Source of the DNA: Candidatus Heimdallarchaeum aukensis
Lineage (GTDB): Archaea > Asgardarchaeota > Heimdallarchaeia > Heimdallarchaeales > Heimdallarchaeaceae
Assembly: GCA_021513695.1 (NCBI GenBank)
Contig: CP084166.1
Coordinates: 928,001-992,000 of the forward strand
Direction: 5' to 3'
DNA length: 64,000 nucleotides
The notes under the pieces were generated by a model that saw only the letters and a program-made list of their open reading frames with translations, was not told the origin of the DNA and made no database searches. This document shows, piece after piece, positions 10,331 through 58,861 of this stretch (position 1 is the stretch's first letter; the number at the start of each line of letters is the position of its first letter). Both the position numbers and the translations under genes were made by a program.

Positions 10331-10341
10331 TTAGCATACTC

Positions 10342-23785: not shown

Positions 23786-23791
23786 TAATAG

Positions 23792-26990: not shown

Positions 26991-27002
26991 CGAAATGATG
27001 GA

Positions 27003-27031: not shown

Positions 27032-27073
27032 TAGAGGTAGAAGTAATGGTATTAAATTCTTGGTGAAATTGTA

Positions 27074-27604
27074 ATGGTGGAGTTAAATCATATTAGCATT
27101 AAGAATACTGATTTTGCAGTAACTGGAGTAATGGTTCAATATTTATTTTCATGTAAAAGAGAATTGTGGTTTTTTACCAAAAAAATTGATTTCAACAAAG
27201 AGGATCAGAACATTCAAATTGGCAAAATAATACATGAAACAAGCTATAAACGAAATAAAAAAGAGTTTGACTTAGGTTTTGTAAAATTTGACTTAATTGA
27301 AACAAAAAACAGGATAATAATTTCTGAAATAAAAAAATCTTCAAAACTTTTGGAACCTGCAAAAATGCAACTTTTGTATTATGTTTACATTTTAAGTAAA
27401 ATAACTGAAAAAGAAGTAGAAGGAGAAATTAGAATTCCAAAAGAGAGAAAAAAAGTAAAGATTCAATTGCAAAACGAAGAAGAAAAATTAATTCAAAAAG
27501 CTTTGAGAGAGATTAAAGAAATTTCCTTACTGGAAAGACCTCCCAAAGCAGAAAAAAAATTTTATTGTAAGAATTGCGCTTATTACATTTTTTGCTGGGT
27601 TTGA
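27074..27604 (+). CDS. cas4: Cas4 (RecB-like nuclease with Fe-S Cys cluster)
   Basis: 176 aa. One N-terminal Cys (FSCKRELWF) plus a C-terminal CKNCAYYIFC. Sits before cas1. SD GGTGA at 27062-27066. Confidence 0.85.
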   Translation: MVELNHISIKNTDFAVTGVMVQYLFSCKRELWFFTKKIDFNKEDQNIQIGKIIHETSYKRNKKEFDLGFVKFDLIETKNRIIISEIKKSSKLLEPAKMQLLYYVYILSKITEKEVEGEIRIPKERKKVKIQLQNEEEKLIQKALREIKEISLLERPPKAEKKFYCKNCAYYIFCWV

Positions 27605-34407: not shown

Positions 34408-34761
34408 ATCACATCCTGCCTAAAAGAAAGATTTCGTGTATTTCCTGTTTGTTTTAACTGTTTTGATTTAACAATAGGCTTTTTCGTGATCAGAGAATTT
34501 CTTATCATTTTTTTCACTTTAGGAATGATGATTAATATTGATTAATAGATTGAATCTTTTTTATCTTATATTTATTAGATTTTATTTTTCCTAAAAAGTT
34601 ATAAAATTCACACTAAAAATTATAACTTTGTGTTCTCTCTTTCCTGTTGTTAAATACACATTTTTGCTCCAAAGCGAATTATTTTATTCCAAACGGCTAG
34701 AAACAGAAGGTTAATTTCGTTTAAGAAAAGTTCTTAATAGGTTGAATTATTTAGTGTTTAG

Positions 34762-36246: not shown

Positions 36247-36484
36247 TCCAAAAGTAAGATTATTTTGAACCATTTTTTAGGAATAAGAAAAAATGGTTAT
36301 AGATGTAAAAAAAATCGGTAGATGTATGAAATATACTTTTCACAAGTTTTGTGATGGAAAATATAGGTATCACATCATTTACTTGTAGATCATTTGTCAT
36401 ATTTACTTGGTTCCTAAATTAATAGAGTAAACATTCGTTGTTTTTTTATCCAAAAATTATAATAATGCTTTCTTTATTTTATAA

Positions 36485-37351
36485 GTGAAAAAAATGAGTG
36501 ATGATAATAATTTTTCTTCTGATTTAAATAATGCCGATAGTGATTTTCTTTTTTCTTCCTCTTCTTTTGAGTCAAACCTTATTAATGGTGAAAAGGTCTT
36601 TAACGATTTTCTTATTCCTTATCGAACTATTTCTTTTTTTGGTCTTGTAGTCTTGACTTTATCCTTTCTTTTGCCTTTGATAGTTATTTTAGTTGTTCAG
36701 TTTGGTACTGATTTTTCTAGAGCTGTTAAATACACTATTGATGTCATAATGGGTTTGTGGCTATTTTTCACTTTCTTGTTTTTCTTTTTCATTGGTTCAA
36801 GTAATCAACGACTTATTATTACTAACTTTCGTTTAATTTGCATTAGAGAGTATTTTCCTTTTTTCTTTAAGAAGTTTAGAATTCTCAAGGAATGTTCTAC
36901 TGATATTAATAGTGTTACTCTTGTTGAGCGCAAAAAGTTTTCTCGTCCTGAACCTTTTATGTTTTTCACTGGATTGTTGATGTTTTTTGTTAGTTTATTA
37001 CTTTTTATTTCTATTAAGATTGTTGAGCAGTTCAACATTTCTTCTTTCATTCAATATAAGAAAACCATTCTTATTAGTAGTTCAATACTTTTGATTCTTT
37101 CTTTTATGCTTATTATTTATGCTATATTCTTTTTCTCCAAGAATATTTACAAACTAGCTTTTTCCATTGGTCAAACTTATCCTCTACCGCCTGTTATTGA
37201 CAGATTATTTTCAAGGAGTTTGAAAGCTGGTTATTGGGTAATTTACGGTTGGGAAAAAGATTCAAAAAGGATGTATGAAGAAGCTCCTCAAATACTATTT
37301 TCTCTTAAATTTGATAAGCATCTTCAACAGAATAATTTGAAGGAGCATTAA
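36485..37351 (+). CDS. Integral membrane protein, unknown function
   Basis: 288 aa with several hydrophobic helices. The track start GTG lies inside an SD-like AGTGA; the probable start is ATG at 36494. Confidence 0.6.
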   Translation: MKKMSDDNNFSSDLNNADSDFLFSSSSFESNLINGEKVFNDFLIPYRTISFFGLVVLTLSFLLPLIVILVVQFGTDFSRAVKYTIDVIMGLWLFFTFLFFFFIGSSNQRLIITNFRLICIREYFPFFFKKFRILKECSTDINSVTLVERKKFSRPEPFMFFTGLLMFFVSLLLFISIKIVEQFNISSFIQYKKTILISSSILLILSFMLIIYAIFFFSKNIYKLAFSIGQTYPLPPVIDRLFSRSLKAGYWVIYGWEKDSKRMYEEAPQILFSLKFDKHLQQNNLKEH

Positions 37352-43278: not shown

Positions 43279-44040
43279 GGTAGTGTCTAGTTTTCTTCCG
43301 ACAAAAATATTTGTGGGGACTCTAATAGTAAGATATGAACATTCAAAAACTATCTACTCTTTTTAAGAGATGCAGAGTCCCCAAAAAGATAATAATAAAA
43401 GTTTTTTATGAATATATTGGTTCAAAGAATGGTTTGAGGACAGTAGCATGGAAGAATGGTTTAACACACCAAACATTATGGTATTGGGTAAAGAAGTTCA
43501 GGCTCTTTAGGAAAAGTTTACATAGAATTGTAGCAGAGAGAGGGGGAATACCAGAGATTATAGTAGTTGATGAGACGGAGATTAAGACCTCTCAAGGCTC
43601 AATGTATATGTGGTTCGCGTTAGATCCTTACAACAAGACTTTACTGGGTTTTAGTATTACTAAAGGACGGAGTAATCTTGAATGTTTACTAACTTTCCGT
43701 TATTGGCTCAAATGTTGGGGTTTTAAGCCCCGTATTGTCGTTACAGATGCAGGGGTATGGTATCCTGCCTTACTTCGTCTAGGTATCAAAATCTCCGTTA
43801 TCAAAGGTGGTTTACGCTCCTATATTGAACGTTTTAATGCTACTCTTAAGAGTTATCGTTGGTTTCATTCTATTCTCCACTGCACTTGTCCTATCCGTGC
43901 CGTCTATGGCTCTACTCATCTTTCTGGTTTTCTTACTCTCTTTATGCTCCATTATAATTTCGTTCGTCCTCATCAGAGCTTGGGACATCCTCCCCTTAGT
44001 TCCTTTTTACCTAGGAGGTGGTATAAAAACTAGACACTAC
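43279..44040 (+). mobile_element. IS6-like insertion sequence (762 bp) with perfect 16-bp terminal inverted repeats
   Basis: GGTAGTGTCTAGTTTT at 43279-43294 and its reverse complement AAAACTAGACACTACC at 44025-44040 bracket a single transposase ORF. I saw no flanking direct repeat (TCTGAGAG vs AAGAAAGC). Confidence 0.7.
43335..44033 (+). CDS. DDE transposase, IS6/IS240-like
   Basis: 232 aa. N-terminal HTH. DDE candidates IVVDETEIK, IVVTDAGVWY and SYIERFNATLKS. C-terminal YNFVRPHQSLG. Confidence 0.8.
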   Translation: MNIQKLSTLFKRCRVPKKIIIKVFYEYIGSKNGLRTVAWKNGLTHQTLWYWVKKFRLFRKSLHRIVAERGGIPEIIVVDETEIKTSQGSMYMWFALDPYNKTLLGFSITKGRSNLECLLTFRYWLKCWGFKPRIVVTDAGVWYPALLRLGIKISVIKGGLRSYIERFNATLKSYRWFHSILHCTCPIRAVYGSTHLSGFLTLFMLHYNFVRPHQSLGHPPLSSFLPRRWYKN

Positions 44041-46165: not shown

Positions 46166-46414
46166 ATGAAGAAAATGAGTAAGGAAAAAATCTCAATATC
46201 AATAGATGCAAGAGGGAGTCATTGCCCTGGACCAATGATGGAATTAATTAAAGCCATAAGACAGGCAGAAGTTGGAGAAATTGTTGAGCTTTTGAGTTCA
46301 GAGGAAGGATCTTTAAGTGATATTCCTGCATGGATTGAAAAAGCGAAACATGAACTTGTTGATATGATAAAAGAAGACGGTTATAATCGTTTTCTAGTCA
46401 GAAAAACGAGGTAA
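46166..46414 (+). CDS. tusA: TusA/SirA-family sulfur carrier protein
   Basis: 82 aa with IDARGSHCPGPMMELIKAI, the conserved Cys-Pro-x-Pro active-site motif. Confidence 0.8.
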   Translation: MKKMSKEKISISIDARGSHCPGPMMELIKAIRQAEVGEIVELLSSEEGSLSDIPAWIEKAKHELVDMIKEDGYNRFLVRKTR

Positions 46415-46420
46415 AGATTA

Positions 46421-47563
46421 ATGAATAAAATTATAGTCATTGGTGGAGGATTTTCAGGTCTTACTATAGCTAACAAACTTGCAAAAAAAGCTAGAAAATA
46501 CAAGTTAGACATAACTCTGATCGAACCAAAAGACCATAATTTTTACGAGCCAGATCTGATTTTTTATGCATTTAACAATAAGAAACTGTCCAAGTTATAT
46601 AAACCGATGCATAAACTCGTGAGGAAAAGAGTTAATCACATTGGGATGCGGGCTAAAAAGGTCGAGACAGAGAAAAAGAAAGTAATATTAGAAGATGGGA
46701 CAGAGTTAGATTACGATTATCTAGTTCTTGCTACTGGAGTTAAATATATAGAAAAAGATTTCAAATATAGTGAACAAAAACACATTCATCACTTCTATAG
46801 CCCACCAGCAACAGAAAAGTTTAGACAAATGATAAAACGTTTTAAAGGAGGAACAATTGTTATCTCACCATCAACTGTGCCCTATAAATGTCCTCCAGCT
46901 CCTGTAGAATTCACTTTTATGTTAGATTCTTATTTAAAGAAAAGAAAGTTAAGAGACAAAGCAACGATAAAGTTTCTCTATCCTCTTTCTGTGCCTTTTA
47001 CAGTTAAAGAAGCTGCTGTTGTGGTAGCTGAGATGTATAAAAAAAGAGGAATAGAATTTGTTCCTTACTGTAATTACGAAAAAGTGGATATTGAGAACAA
47101 AAAATTCATCTCTTTTGAAGGAGAAGAGATAGAATACGATGAACTTGTACTGCTACCCATACATGAAGGTCAAGATATAATCAAAGAATCAGGTCTGGGA
47201 GATAAAGAAGGATATGTTCCTACAGACAAATTCACACTGCAAGTGAAAGGGCATCCAAATATATATGCTATCGGTGACTGTACAGATCTACCTACTTCTA
47301 AGGCTGGAGCAGTTTCTCATTATTCTGCACCTACTATCGTAAAAAATATTATTAACCAGATTAAAGGAAAAGAAGCTTCAGCAAAGTATAACGGAAAGAC
47401 AATTTGCTTCTTAGTAACTAGTTATCAAAAAGCAATGATGTTGGACTTTTCATATAACCATCCTTCAAGAAAGTATGGATTAATTCCAATGAGAATCTAT
47501 ATGCTCTTTAAAAGGCTATTTAGGTTCTTGTATTTTCATATATTAATTAAAGGAATAATATAG
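46421..47563 (+). CDS. SQR-like FAD-dependent pyridine nucleotide-disulfide oxidoreductase
   Basis: N-terminal Rossmann IIVIGGGFSGLTIA. YKCPPAPVEF motif. Second dinucleotide site IYAIGDCTD. Hydrophobic/amphipathic C-terminus as in membrane-associated SQR types. Confidence 0.7.
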   Translation: MNKIIVIGGGFSGLTIANKLAKKARKYKLDITLIEPKDHNFYEPDLIFYAFNNKKLSKLYKPMHKLVRKRVNHIGMRAKKVETEKKKVILEDGTELDYDYLVLATGVKYIEKDFKYSEQKHIHHFYSPPATEKFRQMIKRFKGGTIVISPSTVPYKCPPAPVEFTFMLDSYLKKRKLRDKATIKFLYPLSVPFTVKEAAVVVAEMYKKRGIEFVPYCNYEKVDIENKKFISFEGEEIEYDELVLLPIHEGQDIIKESGLGDKEGYVPTDKFTLQVKGHPNIYAIGDCTDLPTSKAGAVSHYSAPTIVKNIINQIKGKEASAKYNGKTICFLVTSYQKAMMLDFSYNHPSRKYGLIPMRIYMLFKRLFRFLYFHILIKGII

Positions 47564-47812
47564 GTGAAAAAAATGAGTGAAAATAAAATCACAAAAATAT
47601 TAGATGTAAAAGGGCTTAACTGTCCTTTACCAATTTTAAAAACAAAAAAAGCTATAAACGAAATTGAAGTTGGAGAAATAATAGAAGTTCTTGCCACTGA
47701 TCCAGGTTCAGTAAATGACTTTCAGGCATGGATTGAATCAACTGGACACGAACTAGTGGAATCTGCAGAAGAAAATGGCATTTTCCGCTATTTAATTAAA
47801 AAAACAAAATAA
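47564..47812 (+). CDS. tusA: TusA/SirA-family sulfur carrier protein
   Basis: LDVKGLNCPLPILKTKKAI. The track start GTG lies in SD GGTGA; the probable start is ATG at 47573. Confidence 0.85.
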   Translation: MKKMSENKITKILDVKGLNCPLPILKTKKAINEIEVGEIIEVLATDPGSVNDFQAWIESTGHELVESAEENGIFRYLIKKTK

Positions 47813-47814
47813 AG

Positions 47815-48297
47815 GTGAAAAAAATGAGTGAAAAAAAGAAAAAAATAGCTATAATTGCTTCTAAAGCCAATTTAGCAGATGCTTACCCTCCTTTTATCTT
47901 AGCGTCTACAGCAGCTGCAATGGATTATGAAGTATCAATATTCTTTACTTTCTTCGGTCTTAATTTGCTTAAGAAAAAAGGATTGAAGAAAGTTAAGATT
48001 ACTCCTGTAGGAGAAACTGCAATGCCCATGCCTATTCCACAAATAGTTGGAATGCTTCCTGGAATGACTGACATGGCAACAGCAATGATGAAAAATTGGA
48101 TGAAAAAGGCCAATGTGGTCTCTTTAGAAGAGTTAAGAGAATTATCTCTAGAAGCTGGAGTAAAAATGATTGCTTGTCAAATGACAATGGACGTAATGAA
48201 AGTTAAAAGAGAAGAATTAATTGATGAAATAGAGGTTGGAGGAGCTGCCACTTTCCTACAATTTGCATCAGAAGCCGACATTACTTTATACATTTAA
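47815..48297 (+). CDS. dsrE: DsrE/DsrF-like (DrsE_2-type) sulfur-transfer protein
   Basis: 160 aa. IAIIASKANLADAYPPFILASTAA fold start and conserved Cys context KMIACQMTMDVM. Probable start ATG at 47824. Confidence 0.7.
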   Translation: MKKMSEKKKKIAIIASKANLADAYPPFILASTAAAMDYEVSIFFTFFGLNLLKKKGLKKVKITPVGETAMPMPIPQIVGMLPGMTDMATAMMKNWMKKANVVSLEELRELSLEAGVKMIACQMTMDVMKVKREELIDEIEVGGAATFLQFASEADITLYI

Positions 48298-48308
48298 CCT
48301 AGTTTGAA

Positions 48309-48695
48309 GTGATAAGGATGTCTGAACAAAAAAAGAAGATGATTATCGTTGTTACTAGAGGAGAAGAAAGTAAAGAAACCTTAGAACCTCCTCTTCATAT
48401 TGCAACTATGGCTGCTCTGTTAGATGCAGAAGTAAAGATGATATATACTGCTAAAGCCGGACTACTATTAAAGAAAGGTGTACCAGAAAAACTAATTCCT
48501 CAAGAAGGAAGACAACCATTGATAGAAACAATTCGAGAAGCAAAAGAAGCAGGTGTTCAAATATACGTATGCACCCCAGTGCTAGAATGGAATAAACTTA
48601 ATAAAGATGATTTCATAGAAGAAATAGATGGAATTGTCGGAGCAATGACTTTAGTTAAAGAGTCACTTGAAGCTAACTCGACAATATCATTCTAA
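48309..48695 (+). CDS. DsrE/DsrF-like protein
   Basis: 128 aa with a DsrE-like alpha/beta pattern (MIIVVTRG..., Cys in IYVCTPVLEW). Confidence 0.6.
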   Translation: MIRMSEQKKKMIIVVTRGEESKETLEPPLHIATMAALLDAEVKMIYTAKAGLLLKKGVPEKLIPQEGRQPLIETIREAKEAGVQIYVCTPVLEWNKLNKDDFIEEIDGIVGAMTLVKESLEANSTISF

Positions 48696-49120
48696 TGAAG
48701 TGGAAAATAATGTCTCTCTCACTTAACTCGCTGTTATCCAAAGATATTACCTGCTTTGATGTAATAAAGAATCTTTTTGCCTTAACTGATAATGAAATTG
48801 ATGTTTTAGCTTGTATTAACCACCTTCAACCAGTAAGCATAGCTAGAATTACAGAAATAATACCCAAAGATAGAGCCACTATATCAAGATCTATCTCTAG
48901 ATTAATGAGCATCGGAGTTGTACGGAAAGAAAAAGAAAATTTGGAGAAAGGAGGATACCAATTTCTGTATAGTAGCTTACCTATGAACGAATTAAGAAAA
49001 TTTGTAAAAAGTACCTTGAATGCAATAATTGAAAATATGAGTATCGCAATGGATAACTTAACAAAAGAAAAATGTGAAGAAAAATTCCAAGAAGTAAAAA
49101 GGAAATACAGCAAAAAATAG
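48695..49120 (+). CDS. Winged-helix transcriptional regulator (TrmB/MarR-like)
   Basis: LTDNEIDVLACINHLQPVSIARITEIIPKDRATISRSISRLMSIGVVRKE. Confidence 0.6.
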   Translation: MKWKIMSLSLNSLLSKDITCFDVIKNLFALTDNEIDVLACINHLQPVSIARITEIIPKDRATISRSISRLMSIGVVRKEKENLEKGGYQFLYSSLPMNELRKFVKSTLNAIIENMSIAMDNLTKEKCEEKFQEVKRKYSKK

Positions 49121-49236
49121 ATTTCCTTTAACAATTTTCCTTTACATTTTTGTTGGTTAACGTTTTATAAAATAGTTATCCTTTTCATTTTATAGATAAA
49201 AGAATTCAAAAAAACTCTTATATTAAATCTTTTTTT

Positions 49237-49521
49237 TTGAGTAAACAAGAAAATAGTGTGATAATAATGACAGAAGTAGATCTAAATAAAATCAAAGCGC
49301 ATCATATTGTAGATGCTAGAGGTTCAGCATGTCCTGGACCATTATTAGAAGCAAAGAAAGGAATCTCAAAGGTTCCCAAAGGAGGAGTCCTTGAAGTTCA
49401 ATCTAGCGACCCTGGTACAAAAAATGATCTTCCTGCATGGTGTAGACGAGCAGGACATAAATTTTTGGGCGTTTTAGAAGCAGATGGATATGATAGAGTT
49501 TTCATTCAAAGACTAAAATAG
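49237..49521 (+). CDS. tusA: TusA/SirA-family sulfur carrier protein
   Basis: VDARGSACPGPLLEAKKGI active-site motif. Alternative start codon in the track. Confidence 0.8.
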   Translation: MSKQENSVIIMTEVDLNKIKAHHIVDARGSACPGPLLEAKKGISKVPKGGVLEVQSSDPGTKNDLPAWCRRAGHKFLGVLEADGYDRVFIQRLK

Positions 49522-49563
49522 AATATTCCTTTTTTTATTAAATTTTAAAAAAAATAAAAAGAA

Positions 49564-50001
49564 TTATATTAAGATATTTGCTTTTGCTTTTGTTGCTGCT
49601 TCAATATATGAAGCTATACCAGAAATTTCATCTACAAGATCAGAGAAATCATCTTCTGGGATATCAAAAAGTGGGATCATGTTAGAACAAGCAATTATTT
49701 TAACATTTCCTGACTCTTTTGCTTTCTTAAGAGCTGCTCTCCAATTACCTAGTCCTTTTTCTTTCATATTTTTGCGCATCAGTTCCTCATAAGGTTGTCC
49801 CTCTATACTTACTGGAAAATGATCTGGTGCGCCTTTTCTAAAAGCATGAGTTCCCCAAAAAGCTAGAAAAATATGTACATCATAATCCATTGCAATAGCT
49901 CCATTTGTTATTGTTGCAAGAGCTATGAGTTTTTCTTCTGTTCCAGAGGTTACCATTATACTAAATAATTCTCTTTCTTCTGACATAATAAACCACATCA
50001 C
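49564..50001 (-). CDS. DsrE/DsrF-like (DrsE_2-type) protein
   Basis: 145 aa. FSIMVTSGTEEKLIALATITNGA and Cys context KIIACSNMIPLF, parallel to 47815..48297. Confidence 0.65.
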   Translation of the reverse strand: MMWFIMSEERELFSIMVTSGTEEKLIALATITNGAIAMDYDVHIFLAFWGTHAFRKGAPDHFPVSIEGQPYEELMRKNMKEKGLGNWRAALKKAKESGNVKIIACSNMIPLFDIPEDDFSDLVDEISGIASYIEAATKAKANILI

Positions 50002-50210
50002 ACTGGTTGCGTGTCCAGATTCACAACTGGCATTTTAAAGATTTTGTAGTTTTTATAACAATAAAAATATTTTTTAATAGATTACGAATTGTTTTTTATA
50101 ATAAGCTCTTTTTATAATTGGCTTTTATCTTAACATATATGCTTTTTTAGTTTATTATCGCTCTATAATTTAAAAAAAATTATTATATCTTTTAAAAATT
50201 TTATTCCAAC

Positions 50211-50630
50211 ATGCAACAAAATGCAAAAAGACAAAAAATTAAAACCAAGAAGATTCTGATTATAACAACAAACGATATTTCTTATCTTGGTGCAGACACA
50301 GCAGGACAGCAACATCTAAAGTATTCAGAAGATGCTCTGATAATACGTGTTCCTGATCCTGTAATTTTTCCACCTGATTTTTATGTGAGAACATTAGAGA
50401 AAGGATTTGGGGGGATAATTGTAGCTTCTGCTGGTGATGAATCTCCTTTCTTGAATTCTCATGCCAGATTAGCGAAGAATATTGATGCTGCTTATAAAAT
50501 AATGAATGAAAAAGGAATTGACACAAAAAGGCTTGTTCTTACAGCCATTTGTAGCATTTGTGCAGGAAGTTTTATCAAAGCTGTTAACAACATGACTAAA
50601 TATTTAGACAGTGTTCATGAGCAAGAGTAA
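50211..50630 (+). CDS. MvhD/FlpD-like protein lacking the canonical Cys ligands
   Basis: Colinear with the MvhD delta subunit as I recall it (...YLGADTAGQQHLKYSEDALIIRVP...GIDTKRLVL...). The positions of FCCNWC, MCSGR and GGCHLGDCHY read ITTNDI, VPDPVI and ASAGDESPFL. Confidence 0.65.
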   Translation: MQQNAKRQKIKTKKILIITTNDISYLGADTAGQQHLKYSEDALIIRVPDPVIFPPDFYVRTLEKGFGGIIVASAGDESPFLNSHARLAKNIDAAYKIMNEKGIDTKRLVLTAICSICAGSFIKAVNNMTKYLDSVHEQE

Positions 50631-50643
50631 AGAGGAGAGATAA

Positions 50644-51927
50644 ATGAAAAATTATGATGCTTTAGTGATTGGAGCAGGGATCTCTGGTATTCAGACTGCG
50701 TTAGATCTAGCAGAACAGGGATTTAAAGTATTAATGATTGATAAAAAGAAAAGTACGGGAGGAGTAATGATTCAATTAAGTAAAGTTTTTCCGACTTTAG
50801 ATTGTGCATCTTGTATTACTACTCCCAAGATGAGTGAAGCGAGTAATCACCCAAATATAGAAACATGGACATTAAGTGAAGTTACAAGCATTAGTGAAAA
50901 TAACGGTTCTTATGTAGTAAATATACTCAAACACCCGCGATATGTAGATCTTGTAAAATGTACTGGTTGTGGAATATGTGAAGAAGTTTGTCCTGTAATA
51001 GTTGAAGATGAATATAATGAATACTATGGAATAAGGAAAGCTGTGGGTGTACCCTTTGGCACTGCAATTCCTCAAAAGGCAGTGTTAGAACCAGAATATT
51101 GCATTTTTTGTGGGGCTTGTGCGAAAAAATGTCCTACACAAGCAATTGAGTATGATCAAGAGCCAGAAAACATAGAAGTTAAAGTAAAAGCTGTAATTGT
51201 TGCTACAGGTTTTGAACAAACGCCAATAAAAGAAGAATATGGGGGAGGACGGTATAAGAATGTAATCAATGCCCTTACTATGGAAAGGCTTTTAGCTCCA
51301 ACAAGTCCTTTTGGTGGAGTTTTTCGCCCAGGAGATGGCAAGAATCCCTATTCTATTGCTTATATTCAATGCGCTGGTTCAAGAGATGCGAGTATTGGTG
51401 TTCCTTATTGTTCTAGAGTCTGTTGTATGTTCGCAGTGAAACAAGCCATGTTACTCTGCGGAGCAGCACCTTTAGCTGATATTACAATCTACTATATGGA
51501 TATCCGAGCTTTTGGTAAAAGGTATGAAGAGTTCTTCCAAGAAGCAAGAGAAATGGGTATAAATTTTGTTAAAGGTAAAGTCGCAAAAATAGAAGAACTG
51601 GAAAATGGTAATCTTAAGCTTAGAGTAGAGGTTCAAGAAGAGGAAGATTATGGAGTTAAGGAAATAGAACATGAACTTGTTGTTTTATCATCTGGAATGC
51701 TTCCCGCTTGGAAACCTGAAAAAGTGAGAGAAATATTACCGCTTGAAATCCACAAGTATGGTTTTATTAAAAGTCTACAACCACATGTAAATCCGTCTCA
51801 AACTAATTTAGATGGAATATTTGTTTCAGGAACAGCTATGGCCCCAATGGATATTGTAGATTCAATTTATAGCGGTAGTACAGCAGCAATGAAAGCTGCT
51901 TTGTACATTAAGAAAATTAAGGAGTAG
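50644..51927 (+). CDS. HdrA-like flavoprotein, short form (QmoA-like) with inserted 2x[4Fe-4S] ferredoxin motif
   Basis: YDALVIGAGISGIQTALDLA. HdrA signature VFPTLDCASCITTPKM. CTGCGICEEVCP and CIFCGACAKKCP. Confidence 0.8.
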   Translation: MKNYDALVIGAGISGIQTALDLAEQGFKVLMIDKKKSTGGVMIQLSKVFPTLDCASCITTPKMSEASNHPNIETWTLSEVTSISENNGSYVVNILKHPRYVDLVKCTGCGICEEVCPVIVEDEYNEYYGIRKAVGVPFGTAIPQKAVLEPEYCIFCGACAKKCPTQAIEYDQEPENIEVKVKAVIVATGFEQTPIKEEYGGGRYKNVINALTMERLLAPTSPFGGVFRPGDGKNPYSIAYIQCAGSRDASIGVPYCSRVCCMFAVKQAMLLCGAAPLADITIYYMDIRAFGKRYEEFFQEAREMGINFVKGKVAKIEELENGNLKLRVEVQEEEDYGVKEIEHELVVLSSGMLPAWKPEKVREILPLEIHKYGFIKSLQPHVNPSQTNLDGIFVSGTAMAPMDIVDSIYSGSTAAMKAALYIKKIKE

Positions 51928-51930
51928 ATC

Positions 51931-53958
51931 ATGATGTCAGAGAAAGTGAAAATCGGAGTTTATGTTTGTCATTGCGGCTTCAACATAGCTGAAATGGTAG
52001 ACGTAAAAAAAGTTGCTGAAGTGTTGGGAAAAGAAGAAGATGTGGAAGTTGCAAAAGATTTTATTTTTATGTGTTCTGACGCTGGGCAAAAGATGATTGA
52101 AAATGATATCAAAGAAAAGGGAATAAATAGGGTTATTGTTGCATCATGTTCTCCACTATTGCATGAAAAAACATTTCAAGGTGTTTTGGAGCGTGCAGGG
52201 CTAAATAAATTCCTCTTTGAACACATAAACATTAGAGAGCAAGTAAGTTGGGTAAGTAAAAACAAAGAGTCGGCTACAGAAAAGGCTATTCGTTTAATTA
52301 GAGGAGGAATAGCGAAAATACGGAAACAACAAGCTCTTGAACCAATTCTAAAGAAAGTGACTAAAAGTGTAGCAGTTATAGGAGGAGGAGTTGCAGGGCT
52401 AATTTCAGCAAAGAATTTGGGTGAAATGGGCGTTGATGTAACATTAATAGAAAAAAGTCCTTTTATTGGAGGAATGGTTGCAAGATGGGATAAATTGTTT
52501 CCAAACGATGAAAATGCTCAAGACATAGTTCGTAAACTAATAGAAGAAGTAAAAGATAATAAACATATACGGATTCTTACTAATTCTCAGATAGTGGGAG
52601 GAAAAGGGAGTTTAGGTGGATATTCTGTCACAATAGAGACAATTTCCAGAGGAATCAAAAGACTTCCAGAGAATATAGAAAACATTCTTTCTTCTTGCCC
52701 CATAGAAATAGACTCTCCTGAATCTTTTGGGTTAGAAAAAAGAAAAATTGTTTACAAACCAGAATACATATGCTATCCTGAAGAATATGCCATAGATTGG
52801 GATAATCTATCTGATGCAAAAGAACTAGAGAAATACAAAAAATGGGTTAAAGAGTCTAATCTTGAAGAAAAATTTGAATTAGAAAAAACAGTAACAAAAG
52901 AAGAAATTAATGTGGGAGCAATAATATTCGCTACTGGTTTTGAACCTTATGAACCTTATGAGGGAGAATATGGGTGGAAGAAGCATCCAAATGTTGTTAC
53001 TTTGCCACAATTAATAGAAATTCTAAAAAGAGTAGACAAAAATCAAACTCATTTCGTTTATAATGGGAAGGAAATTAAATCTGTAGCCTTTATTCATTGT
53101 GTTGGAAGTAGACAAATAGAAGGAGAAGATATCCCAGGACCTGATGGAAAGCTAAATACTTACTGCTCACGATATTGTTGTAATGCTACTATACATACAG
53201 CCAATGAATTGAAGAAACTTTACCCAAATTTACACGTTTATGAATTCTATCGTGATATTCGTACATATGGTCTTGACGATGAGGATATGTATACTAAAGC
53301 TTCCAAGAACGATGTTATATTTTTGAGATTTAACAATGAGTATAAACCAGAAGTTCAGATTTTAGAGAATGAAAAGTATAATTTTGTTATATCTGTAAAA
53401 GATCAATTAAGTTACTACGAAGAAGTTGACATACCAGCGGATATGGTAGTGTTAAGTGTTGGAATGGTTCCTCCACAGATAGATGATCTAGTATCTATTT
53501 TCACTGTCTCAAGAGGAAATGATGGTTTCCTACTTGAAGCTCATCCAAAACTAAAACCTGTTGAAACTTCTTCTGGTATTTTCCTTGCTGGAACAGCGCA
53601 AGGACCTATGAATGCAAGTGAAGCTGCTGCAGGAGCTACAGCAGCTGCAGTTAAAGTAGCAGCAGTGGTTTCTAAAGATGAGCTAGCTTTATCTCCATTT
53701 ATTGCTCGTGTTGACATTACAAAATGTGATGCTACTGGAAAATGTGTTGAAGTGTGTGAATATAATGCTATTGAAGTAACTGAGGTTGAAGTCGAAAAAG
53801 GAAAAGTGGAAAGAAAAGCGCAAGTTAATCCTACTTTATGTGTAGGAGGAGGAACATGTGTAAGCGCATGCCCTAACCAAGCTATTCGCATTGTTGGATG
53901 GACGAACGAGCAAATTGAAGATATGATTACTGCGATGATCAAGGAGGTTAAAGAATAA
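51931..53958 (+). CDS. hdrA: HdrA-family flavoprotein, full length (HdrA/QmoB-like)
   Basis: N-terminal KIGVYVCHCGFNIAE...FMCSDAGQ...VIVASCSP...FEHINIREQVSWV closely matches the HdrA N-terminus. FAD site VAVIGGGVAGL. C-terminal CDATGKCVEVCE and CVGGGTCVSACP. Confidence 0.85.
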   Translation: MMSEKVKIGVYVCHCGFNIAEMVDVKKVAEVLGKEEDVEVAKDFIFMCSDAGQKMIENDIKEKGINRVIVASCSPLLHEKTFQGVLERAGLNKFLFEHINIREQVSWVSKNKESATEKAIRLIRGGIAKIRKQQALEPILKKVTKSVAVIGGGVAGLISAKNLGEMGVDVTLIEKSPFIGGMVARWDKLFPNDENAQDIVRKLIEEVKDNKHIRILTNSQIVGGKGSLGGYSVTIETISRGIKRLPENIENILSSCPIEIDSPESFGLEKRKIVYKPEYICYPEEYAIDWDNLSDAKELEKYKKWVKESNLEEKFELEKTVTKEEINVGAIIFATGFEPYEPYEGEYGWKKHPNVVTLPQLIEILKRVDKNQTHFVYNGKEIKSVAFIHCVGSRQIEGEDIPGPDGKLNTYCSRYCCNATIHTANELKKLYPNLHVYEFYRDIRTYGLDDEDMYTKASKNDVIFLRFNNEYKPEVQILENEKYNFVISVKDQLSYYEEVDIPADMVVLSVGMVPPQIDDLVSIFTVSRGNDGFLLEAHPKLKPVETSSGIFLAGTAQGPMNASEAAAGATAAAVKVAAVVSKDELALSPFIARVDITKCDATGKCVEVCEYNAIEVTEVEVEKGKVERKAQVNPTLCVGGGTCVSACPNQAIRIVGWTNEQIEDMITAMIKEVKE

Positions 53959-54260
53959 TGTCTGAAGAAAAATATGATTATCGAACAGCCCTAAAAAAGC
54001 TGAAAGAAAAAATGGGTGGAACAAAAGCTGAATTGTTAGAGAGAAACAAGCAAAGAAACAAAGACAAGAAACTAGTGGTACAAGCAATTAAGGAGGGTCT
54101 TTCAACTGTTCCTAAGGTTGCAGAGAAAACTGGTCTTCCAACAGATAGGGTGTTTTCTATAATTAACCAACTAGTAAAATATGAAGGGCTTGTGATGAAA
54201 GACAAGCGAAGCGAATATCCTGTGTATGGTTTTGTAGAAGAAGGTGAAAAAGATGAGTAA
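53958..54260 (+). CDS. Small winged-helix-like protein embedded in the hdrA/qmoC operon
   Basis: 100 aa. VVQAIKEGLSTVPKVAEKTGLPTDRVFSIINQLVKYEGLV. Its start overlaps the hdrA stop (ATAATG) and its end overlaps the next gene. Confidence 0.45.
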   Translation: MSEEKYDYRTALKKLKEKMGGTKAELLERNKQRNKDKKLVVQAIKEGLSTVPKVAEKTGLPTDRVFSIINQLVKYEGLVMKDKRSEYPVYGFVEEGEKDE

Positions 54261-55473
54261 TATTACAGTTGATCTAAATCTAATTAAAGAAATTAAAAAA
54301 TATGGAGCATTTGATGTCTCTGCTTGCTTTAACTGCGGAACATGTACAGCAATTTGTCCTTTGACTGATGAAGAAGGTAATTTTCCAAGACGTATTATTA
54401 GATATGCACAATTAGGTCAAAAAGAAAAACTTGAAGGTTCAAAAGAGTTATGGTTATGTTATTACTGTGGTGAGTGTTCTGACACTTGCCCTCGTGAAGC
54501 AGATCCAGGAGAGTTCATGATGTCAGCAAGGAGATATGCAATAGCTAGTTATGATCCTACAGGTATCTCCAAACTTCTTTACAAATCTAAACTTTTTTCT
54601 GGTTTTATGGTCGCTTTAGTAGCATTTTTGGTAGGATTGGCTTTTTACATTGTACGTGGAAATGAGGTACACGCAGATTCTTTGCTTTTTGAAATCGATC
54701 CTGCTTATATTCATTGGGGTGGTTATGCTCTTATGGCATTTTTAGCCATAGTTGTAGTTGCTGAACTGTGGAAAATGACGACTAGGATTTATAAGAAGGA
54801 AAAAGAAAAACTGGAGAAAGAAGGAGTAGAAATAGATGAGAAAATTTTTCCAAAGCTTGTTAGATGGGTGAAAAATGCGTTTAACATTGTATTTGTTGAA
54901 TTTATAGCTCAAAAAAGATACTTTAGAAGAGAAAAAGTTGAAGAAGAAAAATGGATTTTTTCTAAATGGTTTATTCACTTAAACATAGTTCTTGGTTTTT
55001 CTGGATTATTTGTGGCAACTGCACTAGATTTCTTTTTAGATATTATAAACGTAAAGAAAACTCCAATCGGTGCAGTACCTTTATTCTATCCCACAAGATT
55101 GTTAGGAACAATTGCTGGATTAATGTTACTATATGGAATAATTCTCGCTTTCTTCTTTAGACTTAAGAAACAAGACTCTTCAAGAGAACATTCACGATTT
55201 TCTGATTGGTTTCTTTTATCCTTGCTTTTTGGACTAGCTGTTTCAGGATTTATACTAGAAATTCTAGTCTACTTTCCTTTAGCTAATGAACAATTTGCTT
55301 TCTGGACTTTTATTGTGCATGTGGTTTTTGCTGTAGAGATGATTATTTTTGCACCATTTTCAAAACTTGCTCATCTTATGTATAGAACCTATGCTCTTTG
55401 GATTTACAAAAATTTACAAACAGCACCCAAAAAATATCCAGAAATAGCTGATCTAATAATATATGAAGATTAA
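54244..55473 (+). CDS. QmoC-like membrane subunit: HdrC-like 2x[4Fe-4S] domain fused to a multi-TM (NarI/HdrE-like) domain
   Basis: CFNCGTCTAICP...CYYCGECSDTCP followed by about 6 TM helices with conserved His. No CCG (HdrB/D) motif. Probable start ATG at 54253 after GGTGA. Confidence 0.7.
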   Translation: MKKMSNITVDLNLIKEIKKYGAFDVSACFNCGTCTAICPLTDEEGNFPRRIIRYAQLGQKEKLEGSKELWLCYYCGECSDTCPREADPGEFMMSARRYAIASYDPTGISKLLYKSKLFSGFMVALVAFLVGLAFYIVRGNEVHADSLLFEIDPAYIHWGGYALMAFLAIVVVAELWKMTTRIYKKEKEKLEKEGVEIDEKIFPKLVRWVKNAFNIVFVEFIAQKRYFRREKVEEEKWIFSKWFIHLNIVLGFSGLFVATALDFFLDIINVKKTPIGAVPLFYPTRLLGTIAGLMLLYGIILAFFFRLKKQDSSREHSRFSDWFLLSLLFGLAVSGFILEILVYFPLANEQFAFWTFIVHVVFAVEMIIFAPFSKLAHLMYRTYALWIYKNLQTAPKKYPEIADLIIYED

Positions 55474-55499
55474 AGAGAAAATCTTTTTCTCTTTTTTTT
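55474..55499. terminator. Hairpin plus T-run between the convergent qmoC-like and cbiO genes
   Basis: AGAGAAAA(55474-81)-TCT-TTTTCTCT(55485-92) followed by TTTTTTT. Confidence 0.4.
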
Positions 55500-56217
55500 A
55501 GAATTTTCCAAGATAATTTTCAATTTCTGGAACTTCTGACAATTTGGAAGAAGGACCAAAAAATAGTGTTTCTCCCCTATTTAGAAACAGAACATTGTCA
55601 GACCAATTTTCAATTAATAATCGTGAATGACTAGTAAAAATTAATGTCTTACCTTTTTCAATCACATCTTTTTCCAAAATTTCCTGCAAGGATTTTCTAG
55701 TTGGATAATCAATATTAGCAAAAGGTTCATCCAAAACAATTATTGAAGGATCCATAACTAAAACTCCTGCAATAGCTACTCTTTTCCTTTGCCCAAAAGA
55801 GAGTCTGAAAGGAGAATGATCCTTATATTCTCTTAAATCCACAATTTCCAAAGCTTTTTCTACTTTTTCTTCCACTTCTTCTTCAGTAAAACCTAAATTC
55901 CTAGGCCAAAAGGCTACATCTTCATATACGCTTGCAGAAAAAACTTGTGAATCAGGGTTTTGAAAAACGAATCCTACTCTTTTTCTAATTTCTTTAATTG
56001 TTTCTCTATTTAATTCAAGTTCTTGAACCTTTATTCTTCCTTTCTGGTGAAATTCAAGTCCAAGTAGTAATCTTAACAGAGTTGTTTTACCAGCTCCATT
56101 ATTTCCACAAATAGCAAATTTTTCTCCAATATTAATTGTAAAAGAGAGATTCTTTAACGCAAAAGATTTGTCTGGATACTCAAAGTGAACGTTTTCAAAA
56201 ACTATTTCATGATGCAT
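55498..56217 (-). CDS. cbiO: ECF/CbiO-type cobalt/nickel transporter ATPase
   Basis: Walker A GNNGAGKTT, signature LSFGQRKRV, Walker B IVLDEPFANID. Overlaps cbiQ. Confidence 0.85.
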   Translation of the reverse strand: MHHEIVFENVHFEYPDKSFALKNLSFTINIGEKFAICGNNGAGKTTLLRLLLGLEFHQKGRIKVQELELNRETIKEIRKRVGFVFQNPDSQVFSASVYEDVAFWPRNLGFTEEEVEEKVEKALEIVDLREYKDHSPFRLSFGQRKRVAIAGVLVMDPSIIVLDEPFANIDYPTRKSLQEILEKDVIEKGKTLIFTSHSRLLIENWSDNVLFLNRGETLFFGPSSKLSEVPEIENYLGKF

Positions 56218-56984
56218 TTTTGAATAATACCTCCTGATATTAGACTAAAAAGAGTACTAATGAAAATGAGAAAAAGAAAATCTGCAATTGTTACTCTTTC
56301 TCGTTTTATAAGTAAATTATCTTCTAAACCTCGAAGAACCATTGCTTCGTAAACCTCTGTTCCATGTTTAATAGATTTTATAAGAATCCCACCCATCAAA
56401 GCCGCAGCAGCTTGAAACTTCCTTTTTCTTGATGCAGAATCTAATCCTCTCATCTTTTGAGCTGTTCTAATGTTTTCTCCTTCTTCAACAAGAAGAGGAG
56501 TATAACGCAACATAAGTAAAATGATAGTAACAATAATATTAGGAATAAAAAGACTGCGAAGACTCTGAATAAATTGTTGCATTGTCACACAAGTCGTATA
56601 CAGAGTAATTACAGAAACAGAGAAAATACCTCTAACCCAGATAAATAGAGCTCTATTTAATCCGTCGGAATAAATCTCAAAATTAATACCAATAAAGGAA
56701 TTTGAATAAATTACTTCTCCAAGTTTTAGAAATAAAGATGGAATACCTAAAAAGAAAATTAAAACTGAAGCTGGAATTATAAGCCTAATAGTTCTTACAA
56801 TTGAAGCTTTTATTGACAAAAAGAAAATTAAGGCTCCTAAGTAAATAATAAAAATGTTAAACAAATTGTTACTTAATAAAAATAAAACGATTACTAATAT
56901 GGTAAAGATAAGTAGTGCAACAGAAGAGAATATTCTCTGATTTTTCTTATCACTAAATGGAAATAAAAATTTTGTATTGTTCAT
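56202..56984 (-). CDS. cbiQ: CbiQ/EcfT transmembrane component
   Basis: 260 aa, multi-TM, with the conserved ...IRTAQKMRGL... arginine-rich coupling region. Located between cbiM and cbiO. Confidence 0.8.
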   Translation of the reverse strand: MNNTKFLFPFSDKKNQRIFSSVALLIFTILVIVLFLLSNNLFNIFIIYLGALIFFLSIKASIVRTIRLIIPASVLIFFLGIPSLFLKLGEVIYSNSFIGINFEIYSDGLNRALFIWVRGIFSVSVITLYTTCVTMQQFIQSLRSLFIPNIIVTIILLMLRYTPLLVEEGENIRTAQKMRGLDSASRKRKFQAAAALMGGILIKSIKHGTEVYEAMVLRGLEDNLLIKRERVTIADFLFLIFISTLFSLISGGIIQKCIMK

Positions 56985-57051
56985 CGCTTATTCTCTTTTT
57001 GCTTATAAAGAAAAAAAAATAAAGAGTTATTAACTCTTACTTTTTTTAAGA

Positions 57052-58053
57052 TTATTCACCTTTTTCTTGGACAGCTTTTTGTCCTTTTTTGAATTTATAA
57101 AGCCTGAATCTGTAAAGTAAGTAGCTAAATCCAATTAGTACGAAGAAGAGTATGATCATTACAATTGCCATAGCCAAGATATCCCAACCTAACCCTTCAG
57201 GAAAGCCAAATATTCCGGATTCAAGAACTGTAACATCGATACCATTTTCAGAAAGAACTTCAAAAGTTTTCTCTAGTCCATCAGGATTACTGCTGGCTAC
57301 TATACCAAAAATAGACATTACGGCAAAAGAAGCAAAAGTAGCAATACCCGCCCAAATAGGTATTCTAAATTTGGGTTCTGCTTCTTCAGTTCTTTTGGTA
57401 AAGAATAAGGCACTTCTTGCATCTTCGAATAAACTTGGTTCTGCTCTGAAAACAAAGAAAACTATAGCAAAAGTGATTAAACCCTCAGCTACCCCAATTA
57501 TTGAATGTAAGATTAGCATCCATGAGAATATTAGACCTGCAGCTGCACTCTGAGCAAGAGTAAGCTCAATTGAAGCAAATAAAGCCATACATATTGTTGA
57601 AAAGAAAGCAGCGATTCCAGCAGCAATGGCAAACTTCTTTCTATCTTCCTTCCATTTATCAGGTAGGAAATAGTAAATTGCATAAGTAGTAAAAGCACCT
57701 ATTATAGCCATGTTAATAACATTGGCACCATAAGCTAAGAAACCTCCATCTCCAAACATTGCTTGAACAATGAGTATTGAAGAGATGATGAGTATACCAA
57801 CCCATGGGCCAACAAGCGTCGTAGCTAAAGCTGTTCCTATTAAATGTCCGCTTGAACCAAAAGGAACAGGAAAGTTAAACATCTGTGCGGCGAATAATCC
57901 TGCAGCTAAAACTCCTACTAGAGGAATTTGCTTCATCGTTAATCTTGATCTACTTTGCCATATGGCAACTAGTATCATGATTACGGCAATAACTAAATAG
58001 ACAATTGCTTGTCCTATCGGTAAGATTCCATCAGGCATGTGCATGAGTAACAC
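57052..58053 (-). CDS. cbiM: CbiM substrate-capture subunit fused to a PDGLE (CbiN-like) C-terminal domain
   Basis: MHMPDGILP N-terminus (probable start 58044). NFPVPFGSSGHLIGTALATTLVGPW...QAMFGDGG. The C-terminal extension contains the literal SSNPDGLEKT motif plus a TM helix. Confidence 0.9.
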   Translation of the reverse strand: MLLMHMPDGILPIGQAIVYLVIAVIMILVAIWQSRSRLTMKQIPLVGVLAAGLFAAQMFNFPVPFGSSGHLIGTALATTLVGPWVGILIISSILIVQAMFGDGGFLAYGANVINMAIIGAFTTYAIYYFLPDKWKEDRKKFAIAAGIAAFFSTICMALFASIELTLAQSAAAGLIFSWMLILHSIIGVAEGLITFAIVFFVFRAEPSLFEDARSALFFTKRTEEAEPKFRIPIWAGIATFASFAVMSIFGIVASSNPDGLEKTFEVLSENGIDVTVLESGIFGFPEGLGWDILAMAIVMIILFFVLIGFSYLLYRFRLYKFKKGQKAVQEKGE

Positions 58054-58471: not shown

Positions 58472-58861
58472 TTATTTTCTATAAGCATTAATAATAGGCT
58501 GTAGAATATTGCTAATTCTTAACTCGATAAGATTAATCAACTCTTCTAATTTTTTCTTTCCTTCTTCAGTGATTTGGTATAATCTTGTTTTTCTTTTATC
58601 CTCTGTTAAAACAGAAATAACTAGGCCCTCTTTCTCTAATTTTCTCAATTCAGGGTATAAAGTACCCGATTTCAATTTAACAAGATCATTTGTTAAACTT
58701 CTAATGCTTTTAATTAAAGAGTAGCCTGATGAATTAGGTTTTTTTTGTAAACAAATAAGAATAAGTGTCCTTGTGATTGGTAAACTTTCAATTGTTTTAA
58801 ATTTGGACAATAAAGATTTTTGCCCATCTTTTTCTATGTGCTTTTTTTTCATTCTCTGCAA
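58472..58861 (-). CDS. PadR-family transcriptional regulator
   Basis: GYSLIKSIRSLTNDLVKLKSGTLYPELRKLEKEGLV. Confidence 0.8.
   Translation of the reverse strand: MQRMKKKHIEKDGQKSLLSKFKTIESLPITRTLILICLQKKPNSSGYSLIKSIRSLTNDLVKLKSGTLYPELRKLEKEGLVISVLTEDKRKTRLYQITEEGKKKLEELINLIELRISNILQPIINAYRK

Follow-up and report, generated by a model that had tools for sequence, protein, structure and literature searches.

The subject of this study is a gene cluster at positions 46166-55473 of a 64-kb stretch of DNA from Candidatus Heimdallarchaeum aukensis, referred to here as the window. The 37 open reading frames (ORFs) of the window were scanned against Pfam and NCBIfam. The circularised genome of this archaeon comprises 3.08 Mb (3,081,793 bp) (Wu et al. 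2022, PMC8813620), and sulfur metabolism is not among the subjects of the genome paper. A first-pass annotation had listed 13 genes in this region and assigned them to an Asgard-type genome. All 13 were recovered by ORF calls, Pfam and NCBIfam with the same coordinates and in the same order, and the source organism agrees with the assignment. The cluster combines TusA and DsrE-family carriers of persulfide sulfur with a putative quinone-linked complex of the Qmo/Hdr type. These carriers, not AprAB or HdrB, appear to be the conserved partners of the complex.

Six genes on the plus strand form the first part of the cluster. TusA-1 (82 aa, 46166-46414; Pfam TusA E 7e-21, CPGP motif), called identically on public contigs, lies immediately 5' of the gene for a protein resembling sulfide:quinone oxidoreductase (SQR) (380 aa, 46421-47563). 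TusA-2 follows (47573-47812; Pfam TusA E 5e-26, CPLP motif) and is 48% identical to TusA-1. Its ORF opens with GTG at 47564; the start at ATG, giving 79 aa, is taken from public gene calls. The next gene encodes a DsrE2-type carrier (157 aa, 47824-48297; Pfam DrsE_2 E 8e-53), which reaches 205.4 bits over its full length with the SulfCarrDsrE2 model (cut-off 210); the other two DsrE paralogues of the cluster reach 28 and 46 bits. Prediction of transmembrane segments found none in the 157-aa protein. A second DsrE-family protein (125 aa, 48318-48695; Pfam DsrE E 2e-10, DrsE_2 E 5e-11) and a regulator of the Sta1/Lrs14 type with a winged helix-turn-helix (wHTH) domain (136 aa, 48710-49120) complete this part. 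The regulator matches the NCBIfam models Sta1 (E 9e-17) and Lrs14 (E 9e-13), both under their cut-offs, and Pfam TrmB/MarR.

The SQR-like protein aligns over its full length to the NCBIfam model of type III SQR with 341 bits; this model describes the selenoprotein subtype and has a cut-off of 525. The best PDB match is human SQOR (E 1e-46, residues 3-378), and both catalytic Cys of SQOR are kept, in the motifs KCPPAP and TICF. The protein is therefore described here as a putative type III or SQOR-like sulfide:quinone oxidoreductase. Enzymes of the SQOR type hand their sulfane sulfur to an acceptor. Thus, the TusA proteins encoded on either side of the SQR-like gene and the DsrE-family proteins are obvious candidates for this role. 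Type III SQR is reported to be common in Heimdallarchaeaceae (PMC11193907).

Two further carrier genes stand between this part and the complex. TusA-3 (84 aa, 49267-49521, plus strand; Pfam TusA E 2e-20, CPGP motif) is followed by a third DsrE-family protein (144 aa, 49564-49998; Pfam DrsE_2 E 3e-18), which is encoded on the minus strand, divergent from mvhD. All three TusA proteins score above the Pfam cut-off and possess the CPxP cysteine, and this motif is conserved in 67 of 70 TusA sequences from the related loci described below. The active Cys of the DsrE proteins is found in the motifs IACQ (157 aa), YVCT (125 aa) and IACS (144 aa). It is conserved in 63 of 65 family members.

The complex itself is encoded by five genes on the plus strand. 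An MvhD-like protein (139 aa, 50211-50630; Pfam FlpD E 2e-15) with a C-terminal CxxC motif (C114, C117) precedes two HdrA-like proteins. The short one, QmoA-like in size (427 aa, 50644-51927), matches HdrA of the PDB entry 5ODC (5ODC_A) with E 1e-118, and the long one (675 aa, 51931-53958) matches PDB HdrA over its full length with E 8e-120. The last two genes encode a Cys-less winged-helix protein of 100 aa (53958-54260) and a QmoC-like membrane anchor of 406 aa (54253-55473). The five genes are closely packed. Gaps of 13 nt and 3 nt separate mvhD and the two hdrA genes, and the winged-helix gene overlaps the hdrA stop at its start and the qmoC start at its end. The gene spacing suggests three transcription units, namely tusA1-sqr-tusA2-dsrE2-dsrE-wHTH, the divergent dsrE, and mvhD-hdrA-hdrA-winged helix-qmoC. 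The first of them possibly extends into tusA3. The three intergenic regions were inspected by eye for a shared operator motif, and none was convincing.

For the comparison with other organisms, the QmoC alignment was searched against one genome per species. This gave 468 relatives, of which the best 80 loci were retrieved and their ORFs annotated with the proteins of the window. In the protein collection, the QmoC-like protein has more than 1200 homologues. The three bacterial contexts viewed first, including that of an Anaerolineales metagenome-assembled genome (MAG), already contained the same operon with TusA before and DsrE after it. Linkage was counted in 62 non-redundant loci, each with an MvhD-like gene and at least 600 nt of upstream DNA. 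TusA adjoins the MvhD-like gene in 61 of them, and a DsrE-family gene is located inside or beside the operon in 58. The recurrent order is TusA, the MvhD-like gene, a short or HdrL-like HdrA, a long HdrA, the winged-helix gene of about 100 aa where present, and QmoC. DsrE precedes TusA, follows the MvhD-like gene or follows QmoC. Since DsrE occupies three alternative positions, the linkage has withstood rearrangement. Two Thermoleophilia MAGs (L050, L056) each have the TusA-MvhD-HdrA-HdrA-QmoC-DsrE operon twice in a span of about 20 kb, the two copies being oppositely oriented.

At least 12 bacterial and five archaeal lineages are represented among the loci. The bacterial ones belong to Chloroflexota (Anaerolineae, Chloroflexia, Limnocylindrales), Actinomycetota, Bacillota, Gemmatimonadota, Acidobacteriota, Bacteroidota/Ignavibacteria, Planctomycetota, Verrucomicrobiota, Armatimonadota, Spirochaetia, a deltaproteobacterium and Aminicenantes. 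The archaeal ones belong to Heimdall- and Njordarchaeota, Bathyarchaeota, Nitrososphaeria and Archaeoglobales. The module is widespread and not confined to Asgard archaea, and the arrangement of carriers and complex is not due to chance. TusA-3 is the best match of every operon-linked TusA in the other loci and, judged by this, the orthologue of the operon-linked TusA of other phyla. Each of the three DsrE paralogue types of the window has counterparts inside operons elsewhere; for the second one (125 aa), orthologue-type genes are found within the operon in Chloroflexia.

In a Heimdallarchaeaceae locus (L002, 54% identical), the order DsrE (minus strand)-TusA-MvhD is the same as in the window. 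The block around the SQR-like gene was detected only in conspecific or 91%-identical contigs; the 91%-identical one (L096) retains TusA-SQR-DsrE2-DsrE-wHTH. A metagenome scan with the SQR-like protein returned near-identical contigs only and is uninformative on how far the conservation of this block reaches. In L011 and L023, seeming SQR genes close to the operon proved spurious, with matches of 17-24 bits to other flavoproteins. As the SQR block was seen only in the Heimdallarchaeum lineage, the conserved unit is the complex with its own TusA and DsrE, and the SQR block is a lineage addition. The first-pass annotation had suggested that a Qmo-like module may be wired to persulfide trafficking, and the linkage in bacteria and archaea supports this. 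The co-conservation of TusA/DsrE with the Hdr-like genes in relatives, on which it had made this suggestion depend, is strongly borne out.

Both HdrA proteins of the window reach about 400 bits against methanogen HdrA and 105-113 bits against sHdrA. Residues 6-424 of the short HdrA align to residues 146-567 of the 5ODC_A chain. In terms of HdrA2, the 427-aa protein covers positions 140-561 and the 675-aa protein positions 1-643. The short HdrA consists of a thioredoxin-reductase-like FAD core with an inserted 2x[4Fe-4S] ferredoxin domain. It keeps DCxxC, the C...CxxxCC cluster and, in the inserted domain, the two CxxCxxCxxxCP motifs, and all 14 canonical Cys are 100% conserved among 29 family members. 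The long HdrA keeps the four Cys of the N-terminal cluster, the FAD core, the C...CxxxCC cluster and the C-terminal ferredoxin domain. DCxxC and the Cys of the inserted ferredoxin domain are missing from it, as seen from the residue-level alignment and from Cys counts across the family. The C-terminal motifs of the long HdrA in the window (53725-53871) read CxxTxxCxxxC and CxxGxxCxxxCP, each without the second Cys. In the family, the first motif usually is without this Cys as well, and the second is canonical in 92%. Each C-terminal cluster of the window protein would then have three Cys ligands, a pattern typical of three-Cys-ligated clusters.

Every HdrA cofactor site (FAD, N-terminal cluster, CC cluster, inserted and C-terminal ferredoxin domains) is present at least once in the pair, and neither protein alone has all of them. 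This complementary loss is family-wide. The two proteins thus look like complementary halves of a methanogen-type HdrA dimer, and one copy of each site in the pair gives the asymmetry that one would expect from a heterodimer like QmoA/QmoB. At about half of the loci, an HdrL-like protein of 900-1000 aa takes the place of the short subunit; in this protein, a GltD/NfnB-like module (Fer4_20 + Pyr_redox_2; residues 162-550 in L007) stands instead of the ferredoxin insert. From this exchange, the soluble partner of the complex appears to be ferredoxin in some lineages, including H. aukensis, and NAD(P)H in others.

In the MvhD-like protein, alignment to solved MvhD revealed that every canonical cluster Cys is replaced: CCNWC by TTNDI, MCSG by PDPV and GCHxGDC by SAGDES. 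Its CxxC (ICSIC) occurs in 63 of 64 loci and is absent from canonical MvhD. Across 64 family members, between 2 and 8 Cys were counted, with the CxxC as sole invariant pair. An AlphaFold2 (AF2) model has a pLDDT of 81, and its top four Foldseek matches are MvhD chains (TM 0.67); the homologue search, made with a word index, gave three matches, so that this model derives from a shallow alignment. In the model, the CxxC is placed on the loop after beta-4, between the last strand and the last helix. Judged from topology, it would lie at the same strand-end edge as the canonical MvhD cysteines.

The winged-helix protein has the same position in 64 loci, about 1170 homologues in the protein collection and no conserved Cys. 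Its AF2 model (pLDDT 85) has a long N-terminal helix followed by a winged helix, and weak similarity to HlyU/ArsR and HTH_20 was found. As a candidate for a DsrD-like or other known complex subunit it was rejected, since profile comparison with the PDB and Foldseek gave generic wHTH matches only.

The QmoC-like protein consists of an HdrC-like 2x[4Fe-4S] domain fused to a NarI-like membrane domain, for which six hydrophobic segments are predicted. It aligns end-to-end to NCBIfam qmoC (NF038018) with 216.9 bits, below the cut-off of 300. The NCBIfam models of HdrC and TcuB also match, and HdrC in the PDB matches with E 9e-13. Two CxxCxxCxxxCP motifs are invariant. Among the His, H242, H356 and H374 are invariant and H154 is found in at least 90% of the sequences. 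These four conserved His would suit two haems b like those of NarI, QmoC and HdrE.

No CCG/HdrB, GCV_H/LbpA, AprAB, Sat or DsrAB domains were found in the 37 ORFs. The absence of HdrB/CCG, AprAB and lipoate-carrier partners, noticed at first inspection, thus holds for all 64 kb. Nor were AprA-, Sat-, DsrAB-, HdrB- or LbpA-like proteins among the identified families of the 25 most recurrent neighbours in about 80 loci. These results bear on the explanation that the cluster encodes an ordinary QmoABC for adenosine 5'-phosphosulfate (APS) reductase, or an Hdr for HdrBC or sHdr-LbpA, whose partners are located elsewhere in the genome and beside which TusA and DsrE are accidental. The architecture and the NCBIfam similarity to QmoC agree with such an assignment, and the partner genes in H. 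aukensis were examined in 64 kb of a 3.08-Mb genome. However, the qmoC score stays below the equivalog cut-off, both HdrA are far nearer to methanogen HdrA than to sHdrA, and TusA in 61 of 62 loci excludes an accident. Furthermore, the module is found in MAGs of Acidobacteriota and Actinomycetota, which are mostly not known as sulfate reducers. DsrA and AprA have been reported absent from Heimdallarchaeia MAGs (PMC11193907). This explanation is largely refuted and, in our estimation, highly improbable.

QmoABC of type I, known from sulfate reducers and Chlorobi, shares with the window two HdrA-related flavoproteins, one short and one long, an MvhD-like module and a QmoC that connects sulfur redox chemistry of the cytoplasm with the quinone pool. 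In contrast to type I, the window-type complex is accompanied by AprAB/Sat neither in the window nor recurrently in the 80 loci, and its conserved partners are TusA and DsrE. The MvhD of the window is a separate, cluster-less protein with a CxxC, and the operon has an additional winged-helix gene. Identity with canonical QmoABC was rejected, as no Apr/Sat linkage was found and the qmoC score is too low. Type II Qmo, described for Vulcanisaeta moutnovskia and Ammonifex degensii, is nearer to typical HdrA than to bacterial QmoAB and occurs in organisms with or without Dsr/Apr; its role was left unresolved (Neukirchen et al. 2023, PMC10504309). Going by this published description, the complex of the window comes nearest to type II Qmo and is a candidate member, with about 400 bits to methanogen HdrA and an occurrence in lineages not expected to reduce sulfate. 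A linkage with TusA/DsrE is mentioned neither in that paper nor in the supplementary files searched.

TusA, DsrE-family proteins and rhodanese are regular companions of the Hdr-derived sHdr-LbpA system (PMC11094781). The window resembles it in having TusA and DsrE three times each, and rhodanese is the commonest neighbour in other loci. HdrB1/B2 (CCG), the HdrC1/C2 pair and LbpA, in contrast, are missing from the window, and the complex has a membrane anchor and two HdrA of the methanogen type. With neither CCG domain nor LbpA in the window, identity with sHdr-LbpA was ruled out. To MvhADG-HdrABC and Fdh-Hdr the complex is similar in HdrA, in the MvhD fold and in the HdrC-like domain. It differs from them by the absence of hydrogenase, Fdh and HdrB, by the fusion of the HdrC-like domain to a quinone-reactive membrane domain, by an MvhD without [2Fe-2S] ligands and by an HdrA split into two complementary paralogues. 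Identity with Mvh-Hdr was likewise ruled out, there being no hydrogenase, no HdrB and no MvhD cluster.

In DsrMK(JOP)-DsrC, a NarI-like di-haem b subunit and an HdrC/D-like Fe-S module link quinol to protein-carried sulfur. The complex of the window follows the same logic, but it lacks CCG domain and DsrC, has TusA and DsrE as carriers and contains HdrA flavoproteins. Detoxification clusters with SQR, carriers of the rhodanese/TusA type and a persulfide-sensing regulator are comparable to the SQOR-like enzyme, sulfane carriers and regulator of the window. Unlike these clusters, the window has no persulfide dioxygenase, and sulfane sulfur appears to be passed to DsrE/TusA beside a Qmo-like complex. 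No TusA-MvhD-HdrA-QmoC-DsrE operon is described in the literature searched, although a mention in subscription journals is possible. The first-pass annotation had found no described pathway to which the combination could be assigned, and this agrees with the literature, in which type II Qmo comes nearest.

The genes flanking the operon in about 80 loci were clustered. Rhodanese was found at 15 loci, regulators of the ArsR type at 12, LysR at 11, PadR at nine and hemerythrin at eight. The ArsR-type regulators are mostly encoded directly upstream of the operon, and most of them share two Cys, one N-terminal and one in the last helix. This would be compatible with thiol- or persulfide-based sensing. 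An ArsM-like methyltransferase ending in CGCGC flanks the operon at five loci, an ArsP_1 permease at three and OsmC at three; L063, L061 and L081 are among the loci with such flanks. These flanks hint at a link to metalloid or thiol stress.

From gene content, cofactor motifs and co-conservation we tentatively propose, as the likeliest reading though one short of probable, that the region is one unit for sulfide and sulfane sulfur made of two modules. The complex would couple sulfane sulfur on its carriers to quinone and to either ferredoxin or NAD(P)H. In Module 1 (46166-49120), the SQOR-like type III SQR would oxidise H2S with quinone as electron acceptor. Its sulfane sulfur would probably be taken over by the TusA and DsrE-family carriers encoded beside it, and the wHTH regulator is presumably co-transcribed. 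Module 2 (49267-55473) would be a Qmo-like complex in the membrane, together with a TusA and a DsrE of its own.

The architecture of the solved Mvh-Hdr complexes, in which the donor of methanogens docks at MvhD, was used for mapping the subunits of Module 2. By analogy, the short and the long HdrA would form a heterodimer. The HdrC-like domain of QmoC would take the place of HdrC, and two b haems and the quinone pool would replace HdrB as high-potential branch. As low-potential port, the ferredoxin domain inserted into the short HdrA may serve, with the NAD(P)H module in its place in the other version. The cluster-less MvhD-like protein, with its CxxC and encoded beside TusA, would occupy the donor-docking position. 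Thus arranged, the complex could couple three pairs, carrier persulfide/(thiol + sulfide), menaquinone, and ferredoxin or NAD(P)H, by flavin-based bifurcation or confurcation.

Standard potentials are about -270 mV for persulfide/(thiol + sulfide), -75 mV for menaquinone, -450 mV for ferredoxin and -320 mV for NAD(P)H. On this basis, electron transfer from sulfide to quinone and NAD(P)+ is downhill and the reverse is not; with ferredoxin, the reaction is near equilibrium and either direction is possible. These potentials slightly favour the oxidative direction, a bifurcation in which TusA/DsrE would receive the sulfane product; this direction also matches the SQR theme of Module 1. The main rival is the same complex working reductively. 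Quinol and reduced ferredoxin would be confurcated, and the sulfane sulfur of TusA/DsrE (persulfide, polysulfide or thiosulfonate) would be reduced to H2S as a fermentative electron sink or for sulfane detoxification, with SQR and carriers feeding or buffering the sulfane pool. The version in the window has the ferredoxin-type insert, for which the three-way reaction is near equilibrium, and the two-Cys ArsR neighbours and rhodanese resemble operons of reactive-sulfur stress. An anaerobe with SQR also needs a quinol sink, and QmoC could serve as such. A related scheme is found in a preprint on the Asgard archaeon Nerearchaeum, in which a cytosolic Hdr is proposed to reduce sulfite and thiosulfate via TusA/DsrE persulfides (10.1101/2025.07.22.663070). 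This independent proposal, like the rhodanese and ArsR neighbours, also speaks for the general coupling of the complex with carrier-bound sulfur.

On the other hand, about half of the family has the NAD(P)H version, and reduction of persulfide by quinol and NAD(P)H is unfavourable at standard potentials. Known enzymes reduce persulfides with NAD(P)H alone and need no membrane anchor, and SQR activity beside a persulfide reductase would cycle futilely if no sulfur came from outside. We consider the reductive direction somewhat unlikely. The oxidative reading can be taken further. The module might be an unrecognised class of flavin-based bifurcating enzymes, which oxidises sulfide to carrier-bound sulfane at a thiol site of the MvhD-like protein, or works in reverse, and divides the electrons among quinone and ferredoxin or NAD(P)+. 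In this specific form, it is an unlikely proposition.

Several points weigh against the proposed coupling. As the main weakness, the proteins of the complex contain no established sulfur-redox domain (CCG/HdrB, molybdopterin, sirohaem) in the Pfam and NCBIfam scans. The CxxC of the MvhD-like protein is put forward as thiol active site from its conservation, and in the solved complexes (5ODC) MvhD is not adjacent to the flavin. Direction and substrate are deduced from textbook potentials; the substrate could be a persulfide, a polysulfide or a thiosulfonate. The model also presupposes quinone synthesis and a quinol sink in H. aukensis. The winged-helix protein could be an operon-internal regulator instead of a subunit. 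The 62 loci share ancestry and are therefore only partly independent as observations. Finally, the closest non-conspecific relative (L004, QmoC 61% identical) has neither TusA nor DsrE adjacent to the complex. As the single TusA-less case, it retains mvhD-hdrA-hdrA-winged helix-qmoC-cbiO with unrelated genes upstream.

The complex of L004 suits a further explanation, a ferredoxin or NAD(P)H:quinone oxidoreductase independent of sulfur, which would be an alternative to Rnf or complex I built on HdrA. In that case, the carriers TusA and DsrE would be co-regulated helpers in repair or protection of Fe-S clusters or thiols, or would serve another pathway. All cofactor sites for electron transfer between ferredoxin or NAD(P)H and quinone are there without any domain for sulfur chemistry. 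The homologous TcuB, which channels flavoprotein electrons into the quinone pool, merely drains its flavoprotein in this way. Nevertheless, the linkage of TusA in 61 and of DsrE in 58 of the 62 loci, together with the conserved carrier Cys, is hard to square with helpers. An exergonic reaction of two partners, moreover, needs neither an HdrA dimer of the bifurcating type nor an MvhD-like subunit with CxxC. Sulfur independence is in our view decidedly unlikely.

Some observations concern gene starts in the window. For several genes, including qmoC, public calls on conspecific contigs place the real start at an ATG 9 nt inside the ORF opened by GTG. The GTG of these over-long ORFs is part of a Shine-Dalgarno-like context, GTGAAAAAAATG, which recurs across the window. 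The 15-mer GTGAAAAAAATGAGT occurs ten times at up to two mismatches, with 0.9 occurrences expected, and mostly at gene starts; positions include 22847, 27605, 36485, 46166, 47564, 47815 and 54244. It looks like a Shine-Dalgarno-like GGTGA box 7 nt 5' of the real ATG. ORF finders consequently extend genes three codons too far, which results in N-termini of the type 'MKKMS...'. Its presence at cas genes shows that the 15-mer is no peculiarity of the sulfur cluster.

Directly 3' of qmoC, CbiMQO is encoded (55498-58053). CbiO-CbiQ-CbiM after qmoC is retained in L001 and L005, and at least CbiO in L004. Cobalt/corrinoid genes are found on both sides of the locus, since the beginning of the window (1095-9894) carries CobN (1300 aa), a ChlI/D-type AAA+VWA chelatase subunit and an ABC importer with FecCD/Peripla_BP_2 (Fe/B12-type). 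Further downstream of the cluster, an MFS transporter, a PadR gene (58472-58861) and a large methyltransferase from 63300 on were identified. Two very large CRISPR arrays flank a cas operon in inverted orientation, one at 10342-16420 with 93 copies (repeat on the minus strand) and one at 28972-33583 with 71 copies (plus strand). They share the 29-nt repeat GTTTAAGCTGAACTAAGTAGTGTGAAAAT, whose copies are identical save the last, which has one mismatch; no ORF of at least 50 aa is found in 9915-16570. The cas operon (20023-28591) is type I-B-like and encodes Cas6, Cas8b/TM1802, Cas7, a Cas3 helicase and Cas1. A lone degenerate repeat with three mismatches lies at 27003-27031, just 3' of the cas3 ORF (24522-26990). 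Two ORFs at 16570-19525 (501 and 492 aa) gave a single weak Pfam match, HTH_24. For four sizeable ORFs at 33607-37351 and 43335-44033 (266, 494, 288 and 232 aa), Pfam gave nothing at E <=1e-5. An EamA transporter, a HIT protein, an Ig-domain surface protein and an M14 peptidase are also encoded in the window.

Qmo/Hdr complexes and TusA/DsrE relays are each well studied, and the tight genetic coupling, in bacteria and archaea, of persulfide carriers with a quinone-linked HdrA complex that has no HdrB is new with respect to the literature searched. The module is also found in MAGs assigned to Granulicella, Terracidiphilus, Chthonomonas and Propionibacteriaceae. These groups have cultivated members, and genetics and biochemistry may be feasible, provided that the operon is present in cultured strains. 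A functional coupling would give a role to the orphan type II Qmo complexes and a new route that joins sulfide or sulfane sulfur with both the quinone pool and ferredoxin or NAD(P)H. If the module should prove to be a new bifurcating class, soil and sediment bacteria and archaea could obtain low-potential reductant from sulfide without reverse electron transport, and its carriers would include the Asgard lineage closest to eukaryotes. For Heimdallarchaeia, a functional coupling would provide a testable sulfur trait, which would be relevant to hydrogen-sulfur syntrophy models of eukaryogenesis.

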